Source: Escherichia coli (GTDB taxonomy: Bacteria > Pseudomonadota > Gammaproteobacteria > Enterobacterales > Enterobacteriaceae). From it: a DNA stretch of 64,000 nt. The notes beneath the pieces were generated by a model that was given only the letters and a program-made list of their open reading frames with translations, had not been told where the DNA came from and ran no database searches. The translations under genes and the position numbers were made by a program. Below, one piece after another: positions 34,165 to 34,724 of the stretch; position 1 is the first letter of the stretch, and each line of letters opens with the position of its first letter. The DNA lies in assembly GCA_902500055.1 (NCBI GenBank), contig GCA_902500055.1_4131.1, one strand, 5' to 3'.

Positions 34165-34688
34165 GGACTTTTAATATTGACGGGATTTGAGGAAGGGATT
34201 TTTCTTCCCCCCCCAAGGAGGGAAATTTGACGCTGATGGTATCAGAGCTATTGCATTGAAGATTACTCATAACGAGTGCGAAAGCGGGTCATCCTGTTTC
34301 TCTCTACTTCAGTTTCATATGACGGTCTACACTTTTAAACATAGTGTATCTTCATTAAGTATCTATGCAATCAAATACTTAATGTGAGTACTCAAATTTT
34401 GGACGCAACTTTCCTGTACAAAATTCGATAACTCTCCCTTAGATAATTCGTAAGGTGTTATCCTTATATGTCTATCAAGGAACCACCAGCTATCCTAACG
34501 TGGTTCTTTATACAGCCGCATTGCCGTGAGGGGTTCAAACTATGCCCACATCTAACGGGTTTCTTTTGCTGTTCGCACTGTCGGACTGCTCAACTGCCCT
34601 CTACGTTTTCGAGTGGATCAGGTACATGAATATCATGCCAACAGAATTGTACAAGATAATTATATCACAAACTTTTACTTCATCCCAT

Positions 34689-34724
34689 AAAAAAAGGTTG
34701 GCATAAGCCAACCTTTTTTCTTTA
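34689..34724. terminator. Bidirectional rho-independent terminator (aaggttggcataagccaacctt flanked by A7 and T6)
   Basis: Perfect inverted repeat with flanking A- and T-runs. Confidence 0.65.

Follow-up and report, generated by a model that had tools for sequence, protein, structure and literature searches.

Covariation evidence for a large structured RNA gene family in 121Q-like jumbo phages and Enterobacterales chromosomes

The 64,000-nucleotide stretch of DNA analysed here (the window; contig GCA_902500055.1_4131.1 of the Escherichia coli assembly GCA_902500055.1) belongs to a 121Q/PBECO4-like jumbo phage (Asteriusvirus) and contains, at 34072–34721, a 650-nt gap free of coding sequence (CDS) that very probably holds the gene of a structured non-coding RNA. 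Positions 34000–34800 are 99.1–99.6% identical to Escherichia phages G17, phAPEC6, 121Q, slurp01 and SP27 and 98.8% identical to PBECO4, all with genomes of 347–371 kb. Upstream of the gap lies a gene of the sigma-70 family (34722–35687, minus strand) with Pfam regions 2, 3 and 4, and the next called gene downstream starts at 34071, also on the minus strand, which is the direction of the genes around the gap. A reading made from the letters alone (hereafter the sequence-only reading) had described an unexplained, unusually long non-coding stretch between the terminator of the sigma gene and the next promoter, and this description was borne out. The intrinsic terminator of the sigma gene (34690–34719, minus strand) is a perfect 13-nt inverted repeat (I2) that is annotated in G17 and UE-S1, and the next sigma-70 promoter, TTGACA-17-TAGAAT (34164–34136, minus strand; 11 of 12 consensus matches), serves the downstream small genes. 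Both lie outside the RNA and mark its boundaries. All other spacers in the 8.8 kb annotated around the gap in phage G17 measure at most 170 nt, so that the gap is about four times as long as the longest of them. The absence of a meaningful open reading frame (ORF) and of a tRNA was likewise upheld: the ORFs of the gap encode 39–66 aa, the longest ORFs across 36 homologous copies encode 31–85 aa, none of these is conserved, and ARAGORN found no tRNA or transfer-messenger RNA (tmRNA) gene or architecture in 33900–34900.

The evidence for an RNA gene comes from the comparison of homologous copies. A scan of IMG/VR with one conserved motif, CACGGCRAYRCGGCNNNATAAA, gave 47 loci, 44 of them real, with 36 distinct sequences; because the family was searched with a single motif, genomes outside the 121Q group may carry more copies than were counted. 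Alignment A1 comprised 36 distinct copies in 694 columns, with the window copy as its first row, and a model of 15 helices and 81 pairs, including two pseudoknots, was read manually from the compensatory changes in it. Standard pairs occupy 94.9% of the cells of this model, as against 38–43% in controls in which the 3' partners were slid by one to three columns. Similarly, two-sided changes are found at 53 of the 81 pairs (14–26 in the slid controls), and the covariation score is 0.483 (0.07–0.10 in the slid controls); the observed values were reached by none of 500 shuffles. Six helices (Hc, Hd, He1, Hm, Hn and Ho) form in every one of the 36 copies and show several pair types in all but the invariant He1, which does not vary and hence gains no support from covariation. 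More than 100 positions of the 36-copy alignment are invariant, mostly in loops and junctions. Further, the model contains 168 G-U cells against 41 A-C cells, an excess that places the RNA on the minus strand of the window.

The full-length manual model is backed by these controls, and an independent set of sequences covers the 3' domain only. This set was gathered with R1, a covariance model of the 3' domain from which helix Hm had been left out; 49 matches were aligned, corresponding to 43 distinct sequences that, the window copy aside, played no part in deriving the structure. Across the 43 sequences the four helices are 97.1% paired, and Hm, absent from the model, is 100% paired with compensatory changes. 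In the window, R1 matches 34225–34330 on the minus strand (89.5 bits, E 3e-16), and it matches 42 of the 72 pattern loci of the metagenome scan. Searching with the family profile in nhmmer gives a match at 34173–34659 on the minus strand (338.8 bits, E 3e-102) as the sole copy within the window; paralogues were looked for there and none was found, the three other copies of such a genome lying elsewhere. The window copy thus combines a full-length profile match, 15 covarying helices and a conserved promoter, the features by which the new family is recognised. That the stretch could encode a structured RNA had been one of two suggestions of the sequence-only reading, and a conserved, covarying structure is indeed present in the relatives, its 15 helices kept by compensatory changes. 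The inverted repeats noted in that reading are also real and coincide with helices supported by covariation.

On the basis of the profile match and covariation, the gene would extend from the predicted start to the end of a distal 3' repeat (34652–34177; this and all following parts of the RNA are on the minus strand), giving an RNA of about 430 nt (body 34652–34227) or about 475 nt with its 3' tail (to 34177). A core of about 415 nt (34641–34227) is closed by helix P1, in which GUCAA (34231–34227) pairs with UUGGC (34641–34637). The pairs of P1 vary on one side only (AU/GU, CG/UG), and its support is therefore weaker. As the 5' part of the window row is misaligned in A1, P1 and the 5' hairpin of the window copy were read directly from its sequence. 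An alternative helix, Hq (GACGA/UCGUC), was set aside: it forms in a subset of copies only and competes with P1.

The 5' domain (34512–34621) begins with hairpin Hb (34621–34611/34601–34594), which carries the conserved loop GAAAAnGUA, is 92.6% paired and has seven of its eight pairs changed on both sides. It is followed by hairpin Hc (34589–34587/34577–34575), flanked by an invariant GAUGAG, and by the long-range helix Hd (ACAGC/GCUGU; 34572–34568/34516–34512), each paired in 36 of 36 copies with two or three pair types per variable position. A K-turn reading of GAUGAG...CGAA was rejected because the would-be A partner varies. Helix Hd encloses the invariant He1 (CCGU/ACGG; 34558–34555/34527–34524) as well as He2 (34547–34545/34533–34531), which stands outside the counted model, pairs in about 25 of the 36 copies and holds only for the short-variant copies, the window copy among them.

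The central part of the RNA consists of a series of hairpins, two of which engage in pseudoknots through their loops. All seven pairs of Hf (GAACCAC/GUGGUUC; 34480–34506; inverted repeat I6) are changed on both sides, with 93% pairing, and the next hairpin, Hg (UAAGG/CCUUA; 34466–34462/34455–34451), is likewise supported by covariation. The loop of Hg, AUAAC, pairs with a downstream GUUAU (34461–34457/34432–34428) in the subfamily-specific pseudoknot PK1, and an invariant UAAGGGAG stands between the two strands. About half of the copies have PK1, which takes at least six different complementary sequences, such as GAUAAC/GUUAUC, AUCGCA/UGCGAU, GAUACUA/UAGUAUC and AUGCAU/AUGCAU, and matches of at least 5 bp occur in 47% of cognate against 16% of non-cognate pairs. 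The possibility that UAAGGGAG is the ribosome-binding site of a small ORF was discarded, as the AUG is not conserved. A recurrent hairpin module (34392–34428; inverted repeat I1) with the stem UCGAAUUUUG/CAAAAUUUGA and a conserved 17-nt loop, UACAnnAnAGnUnCGUC, occupies either of two positions depending on the copy. It was considered as a protein operator reused in mRNAs or as an antisense target, and rejected as such because a whole 352-kb genome has it only inside these RNAs. In the following hairpin, Hk (CAUUAAGUAU/AUACUUAAUG; 34353–34384; inverted repeats I3 and I5), each of the ten pairs shows two-sided change. Its loop, UUGCAU, pairs with AUGCAA on a strand 110 nt downstream (34370–34365/34256–34251) to form PK2, which is 93.8% paired and includes four compensated pairs (UA/CG/GC, GC/AU, UA/AU/CG and AU/GC); in other copies the two strands read UUGUAU/AUACAA, UCAUAU/AUAUGA or UCGAAU/AUUCGA. 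The sequence of PK2 differs among the four copies of 121Q, which could be taken as a sign of pairing between RNA molecules; however, three paralogues of phage CBB share one sequence, which argues against paralogue-specific intermolecular pairing. Hairpin Hl (UACACU/AGUGUA; 34328–34348) has three of its four counted pairs changed on both sides, its two innermost pairs being read from the window sequence only.

The 3' domain (34257–34323) is built around an H-type pseudoknot in which Hm (GUCAU/AUGAC; 34323–34319/34292–34288) crosses Hn (GAGAG/CUUUC; 34304–34300/34284–34280). Both are described as lying within Ho (UGAAG/CUUCA; 34311–34307/34261–34257), and each of the three helices is paired in 36 of 36 copies with three or four compensated pairs. 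A further hairpin, Hp, occupies 34277–34265. The proximal 3' repeat, CAUCAGCGUCAA (34227–34238), is followed by a G+C-rich hairpin, Hr (UUCCCUCC-UUGG-GGGGGGAA; 34205–34224), and by the distal 3' repeat, CAAAUCCCGUCAA (34177–34189), a direct repeat of the proximal motif. Hairpin Hr holds the run of eight C residues that the sequence-only reading had pointed out, found on the plus strand at 34207–34214; its changes are almost all from C-G to U-G, so that pairing is preserved only on the minus strand. Across copies, changes in the proximal motif UAUCAUCGUCAG are accompanied by changes in the distal motif AAAUCUCGUCAG. CGUCA is identical in both repeats in 36 of 36 copies, and a rare C-to-U variant, the change of AUC to ACC and a final G/A change occur jointly in both (33 of 36). 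The 5' strand UUGRC can pair with either repeat, and it is suggested that the core may be closed by one or the other of the two co-evolving repeats, or that both serve as a common site of recognition or processing.

The RNA is more strongly conserved than its surroundings. When positions 34150–34690 alone were used as a blastn query against GenBank phage records, 71 jumbo-phage records were matched, with three to five matching places per record; the unit occurs four to five times per genome in jumbo phages of Escherichia, Salmonella, Klebsiella, Erwinia, Serratia, Yersinia, Pectobacterium and Cronobacter. Over query positions 5–466, identity is 95–96.6% in E. coli phages whose identity over 801 nt, flanks included, is about 87%, and in UE-S1 the RNA core is 95.2% identical against 83.2% for the sigma ORF. 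Further afield, about 430 nt stay about 70% identical in Erwinia, Serratia, Pectobacterium, Yersinia and Cronobacter phages, as do about 400 nt in Salmonella and Klebsiella phages, and 240–250 nt are matched at about 75% identity in Xanthomonas and one further Erwinia phage. In the GenBank phage set the RNA is confined to this jumbo clade, no non-jumbo record being found by blastn at about 65–70% identity or above, and the plasmid collection gave no copy.

Several copies are carried by each genome. OR844650.1, a complete unannotated relative of 352 kb, has exactly four, at 18, 128, 208 and 262 kb, which are mutually 70–85% identical, and the copies of 121Q are dispersed at about 90, 193, 248 and 327 kb of 349 kb. 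Up to four were found per contig of 350–380 kb in 121Q, CBB, GAP32, Yen9-04, Serratia BF and metagenomic contigs. The copies cluster by paralogue type and not by phage, with at least five lineages common to CBB, GAP32, Yen9-04 and Serratia BF, which places the duplications before the phage genera diverged. All of these old paralogues have been retained intact.

Copies are also present in bacterial chromosomes. Two of 5,426 complete E. coli genomes, LR-29-1 and EEC_W5 (locus L089), hold a full-length copy (401 bits) in the same island; in LR-29-1 it lies at about 3,478,970–3,479,583 of NZ_AP027515.1 (L087:4931–5544, plus strand). This copy keeps the promoter, terminator, hairpin and distal repeat. 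The island, of about 10.8 kb, is situated beside ffs and contains a tyrosine integrase gene split by IS3, a serine recombinase gene and candidate defence genes according to PADLOC, namely PDC-M45 (DuOB, DUF488), an adjacent mSLOG-DUF4326 gene and PDC-S16; about 700 nt more of non-coding DNA with TATCGATCGTT repeats follow the RNA. In Serratia sp. 2723 (L080:3257–5904), a large serine recombinase gene is followed after 360 nt by a copy with the same orientation, located at an insert edge. In an Enterobacteriaceae metagenome-assembled genome (CAUSEC010000004.1; L073:6402–7830), a copy is found between thiM and a divergent gene for a CI-like repressor (helix-turn-helix and Peptidase_S24), a site that looks like a prophage edge. 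Finally, a 5'-truncated relic of the RNA in the chromosome of Serratia sp. L9 (L079:3505–4445) is fused to a truncated recombinase gene and adjoins a rimO/miaB-like gene. The chromosomal copies are only 64–76% identical to the nearest phage copy, yet they keep 94–96% of the 81 pairs and have 8–16 compensatory pairs, and are for this reason regarded as old constrained lineages rather than recent debris. None of the proteins encoded next to them is shared with the jumbo phages.

The RNA appears to be transcribed from a promoter of its own (34659–34688), composed of a -35-like ATGGGA (34688–34683), an 18-nt spacer and an extended -10 element, TGTGATATAAT. The latter had been noticed in the sequence-only reading and is present on the minus strand as stated, at 34669–34659, slightly upstream of the 'near 34650' given there; transcription would start at about 34652. 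The same layout, nTGrAA, about 18 nt and TGTGnTATAAT, precedes 36 of 36 aligned copies as well as the chromosomal copies. Roughly half of the copies have an intrinsic terminator after the core, between the proximal repeat and Hr. Two further elements were observed in subsets of copies. In one paralogue type (L017, L019, L021, L032, L036, L037 and L044), a terminator-like hairpin with a U run, GGACAGC...GCUGUCCUUUUUU, stands between the promoter and the core (columns 1–45 of A1); it might act as an attenuator or stabilise the 5' end. About 100 conserved nt past the distal repeat are also seen in many copies (L024, L052 and L049 among them), consisting of GAATTGAGTT, a GTAC...GTAC hairpin and then AATTCTTGAC. 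This stretch might be a promoter region common to these copies or another small element.

An RNA placed in this way could be a cis-acting leader, that is, a very large riboswitch-like or processive-antitermination element behind an early promoter that controls read-through into downstream early genes. Most copies are co-directional with the neighbouring ORFs and point the same way as those downstream, the order promoter, RNA, terminator and genes is found in about half of the copies, and transcription of the window copy, which has no terminator, would read into 34071 and beyond. The ability of either 3' repeat to pair with the 5' strand recalls a two-state switch, and the put RNA of HK022 and the EAR RNAs are likewise located directly behind early promoters and ahead of terminators. 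However, those RNAs are 70–120 nt long, strictly cis-acting and co-directional with their targets, whereas one conserved paralogue type of this family (8 of 36 copies: L023, L024, L025, L029, L033, L046, L053 and L054) lies antisense to the ORFs on either side, with a terminator of its own, which rules out a general role as a leader of downstream genes. Further, the downstream genes own a strong sigma-70 promoter, unrelated genes follow the island and prophage copies, and known leaders come nowhere near a length of about 450 nt and three pseudoknots. Control of the downstream genes in cis is therefore an unlikely function of the RNA.

The structured RNA gene could not be assigned to a known family. 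Rfam 15 (4227 covariance models), which the sequence-only reading had named as a check, gave nothing in 34072–34721 in a scan of the whole window at gathering thresholds. A permissive scan of 33900–34900 returned terminator-type small RNA matches only, all below threshold, as it did for 12 loci with other copies. The models of ROOL, GOLLD, OLE, raiA and HEARO had no match at E up to 10 in the window copy or up to 1 in the 12 other loci, and no description of this RNA was found in the literature searched. Based on these searches of Rfam and the literature, the family appears to be new. Two specific identities were also rejected. The element lies between genes, has its own promoter and lacks flanking exons, and is thus not a group I intron. 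A guide RNA of IscB or TnpB (omega RNA, HEARO) is not expected with a sigma factor and small ORFs as neighbours and a predicted 5' leader of only about 5–10 nt. The group I model (RF00028) does detect a real intron elsewhere in the window and nothing in the gap; this intron (50167–50481, minus strand, 99 bits) lies among four tRNA genes (47730–53118), about 13–19 kb from the RNA gene.

In kind, the RNA most resembles ROOL and GOLLD, large multi-helix non-coding RNAs of phages, prophages and mobile elements that are independently transcribed and have no known function. Both are large 'ornate' phage or prophage RNAs, described by cryo-electron microscopy (PMC12286853). They measure about 580–800 nt, against about 430–520 nt for the present RNA, and occur in Firmicutes, whereas this RNA is found in jumbo myoviruses and islands of Enterobacterales. 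Unlike them, it has four to five ancient paralogues per genome and no linkage to tRNA genes, the nearest of which is 13 kb away. A further comparison is offered by PA5oct, a distantly related Pseudomonas jumbo phage in which RNA-seq revealed four ORF-free transcribed regions, ncRNA001–004; ncRNA002 is 451 nt long and makes up about 4.7% of early phage reads (PMC7318152). The wider phage group therefore does make abundant long non-coding RNAs. As to homology, ncRNA002, the only one of the four compared, gave no nhmmer match with filters off and no match to R1, and was rejected as a homologue; it is G+C-rich and holds none of six conserved motifs searched (for example CACGGC and GACCGT). The logic and data source of the present analysis are shared with an IMG/VR-wide covariation screen of phage intergenic regions that lists 8,495 unnamed candidates, averaging 67 nt (PMC10690425). 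The text of that article contains no 'jumbo', '121Q' or 'PBECO'; fragments of this RNA may be among the candidates.

A large ribozyme, whose pseudoknotted core would be catalytic and would process itself at the CGUCAR repeats or act on another RNA, has been considered as well. In size and architecture the RNA is comparable to group I introns and RNase P RNA, its invariant positions (more than 100) are concentrated in junctions and loops, it combines an H-type pseudoknot with long-range helices, and a co-evolving direct repeat brackets its 3' segment. However, no Rfam ribozyme family matches it, though the group I model succeeds on the intron of the same window, there are no flanking exons or interrupted gene, and conservation of this kind is equally expected of a protein-binding scaffold. 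Catalysis is thus a doubtful proposition.

The other suggestion of the sequence-only reading was a replication origin. As elaborated here, the transcript would prime replication or open the DNA, as do ColE1 RNA II and the R-loops of T4 oriF and oriG; the four to five copies would then be multiple origins, and island copies would let an infecting jumbo phage amplify the islands. The copies are spread round the genome, the promoter is strong and of early type, a G-rich hairpin is found just downstream together with a conserved motif, and the phage encodes RNase HI. Indeed, the ColE1 and T4 transcripts are also a few hundred nt long, with a strong promoter and a G-rich element, and T4 has several origins. 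Those transcripts act through RNA–DNA hybrids at a defined DNA origin, whereas selection here has acted on RNA pairing in an elaborate fold, with compensatory changes and with G-U pairs tolerated on one strand only, and not on a DNA site; a tightly folded RNA also forms R-loops poorly. Further, the GC skew is negative and monotonic across 24–44 kb with no turn, and the gap contains no iterons (the only direct repeats are 10-nt, two-copy and at chance level) and no AT-rich unwinding element. The origin proposal was not sustained, and a role of the RNA in replication initiation is rather improbable. That the stretch is non-functional, a decayed protein gene or a passive repeat resembling a miniature inverted-repeat transposable element, deserves virtually no credence: it is repeated and unannotated, and one record calls part of it a 'repeat_region', but it has no conserved ORF, is conserved more strongly than the neighbouring genes, keeps its promoter and has old paralogues that are all intact, and the massive compensatory covariation already contradicts such a reading.

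Existing annotation gives little hint of the RNA gene. The gap is left blank in the records of G17, 121Q, phAPEC6 and most other phages in GenBank, and a few records place three to five short 'hypothetical proteins' across the gene. In the UE-S1 record (ON568341.1), part of it, at 80759–80916 (L002:1855–2012), was labelled 'repeat_region' by the depositors. Both kinds of label are probably mis-annotations of the RNA gene. Elsewhere in the neighbourhood, a 262-aa ORF at 32845–33633 (minus strand) is noted in the G17 record as similar to the 121Q 'HNH endonuclease', a tentative label, as the ORF has no Pfam match at E up to 0.001. Outside the window, phage G17 has another CDS-free stretch of about 1.9 kb (MK327931.1, 19040–20934; L003) with an annotated terminator mid-way, which shows no similarity to the RNA family.

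Taken as a whole, there is little doubt that the gap is a structured RNA gene. Comparison of the copies shows, at the level of sequence, a minus-strand RNA behind its own sigma-70-type extended -10 promoter, with at least 15 helices closed by a 5'/3' helix, and by the same comparison it belongs to an independently promoted, structurally constrained gene family with ancient paralogues that is carried by mobile elements. That it is a stand-alone, trans-acting RNA is somewhat favoured by the evidence. Under this explanation, host RNA polymerase would transcribe the RNA from the onset of infection, and the folded RNA would act in trans, either binding a protein or a cellular machine in the manner of a scaffold or decoy, or acting as a catalyst. 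It may serve host take-over or counter-defence in the contest of mobile elements with their hosts, a role suggested by the neighbours of the chromosomal copies, among them integrases, a CI-like repressor and candidate defence genes.

Several observations weigh against this explanation. The folding energy of the single sequence is unremarkable (z = -1.7 sense, -1.45 antisense), and in both P1 and the G+C-rich hairpin the changes are one-sided only. The window copy has no intrinsic terminator, which makes read-through into downstream genes or processing possible, and the start, 3' end and abundance of the RNA are all inferred. Further, across the loci compared the RNA has no protein gene as a constant neighbour, and the proposed role in conflict draws solely on the location of the chromosomal copies.

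A more far-reaching proposal builds on the trans-acting RNA. It might be a new class of 'ornate' RNA ranking with ROOL, GOLLD and OLE, with an activity of its own (as a ribozyme or as a self-assembling or protein-organising machine), four to five specialised paralogues in the phages, and copies captured or retained by integrative islands and prophages of Enterobacterales for attack or protection in the conflict between phage and host. An island copy might, for example, act against RNAs made by the phage itself; alternatively, the RNA might disarm a defence of the host. This proposal is tentative and the odds are against it.

Few large, highly structured RNAs of bacteria and phages are known, namely rRNA, RNase P, group I and II introns, tmRNA, OLE, ROOL, GOLLD, raiA and HEARO, and each of them has opened a field or stays a prominent puzzle. 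The support from covariation for the present RNA is unusually strong, with three pseudoknots. As the locus is left blank or filled with spurious 'hypothetical proteins', the current annotation of 350-kb phage genomes misses whole genes. The RNA occurs in cultivable E. coli phages used in phage-therapy work (121Q, PBECO4, phAPEC6 and G17), and this, together with the ancient paralogues and the island relatives next to candidate defence genes, makes the family directly testable by E. coli genetics. Its study might show that RNA forms a layer of its own in host take-over by jumbo phages or in anti-phage conflict.

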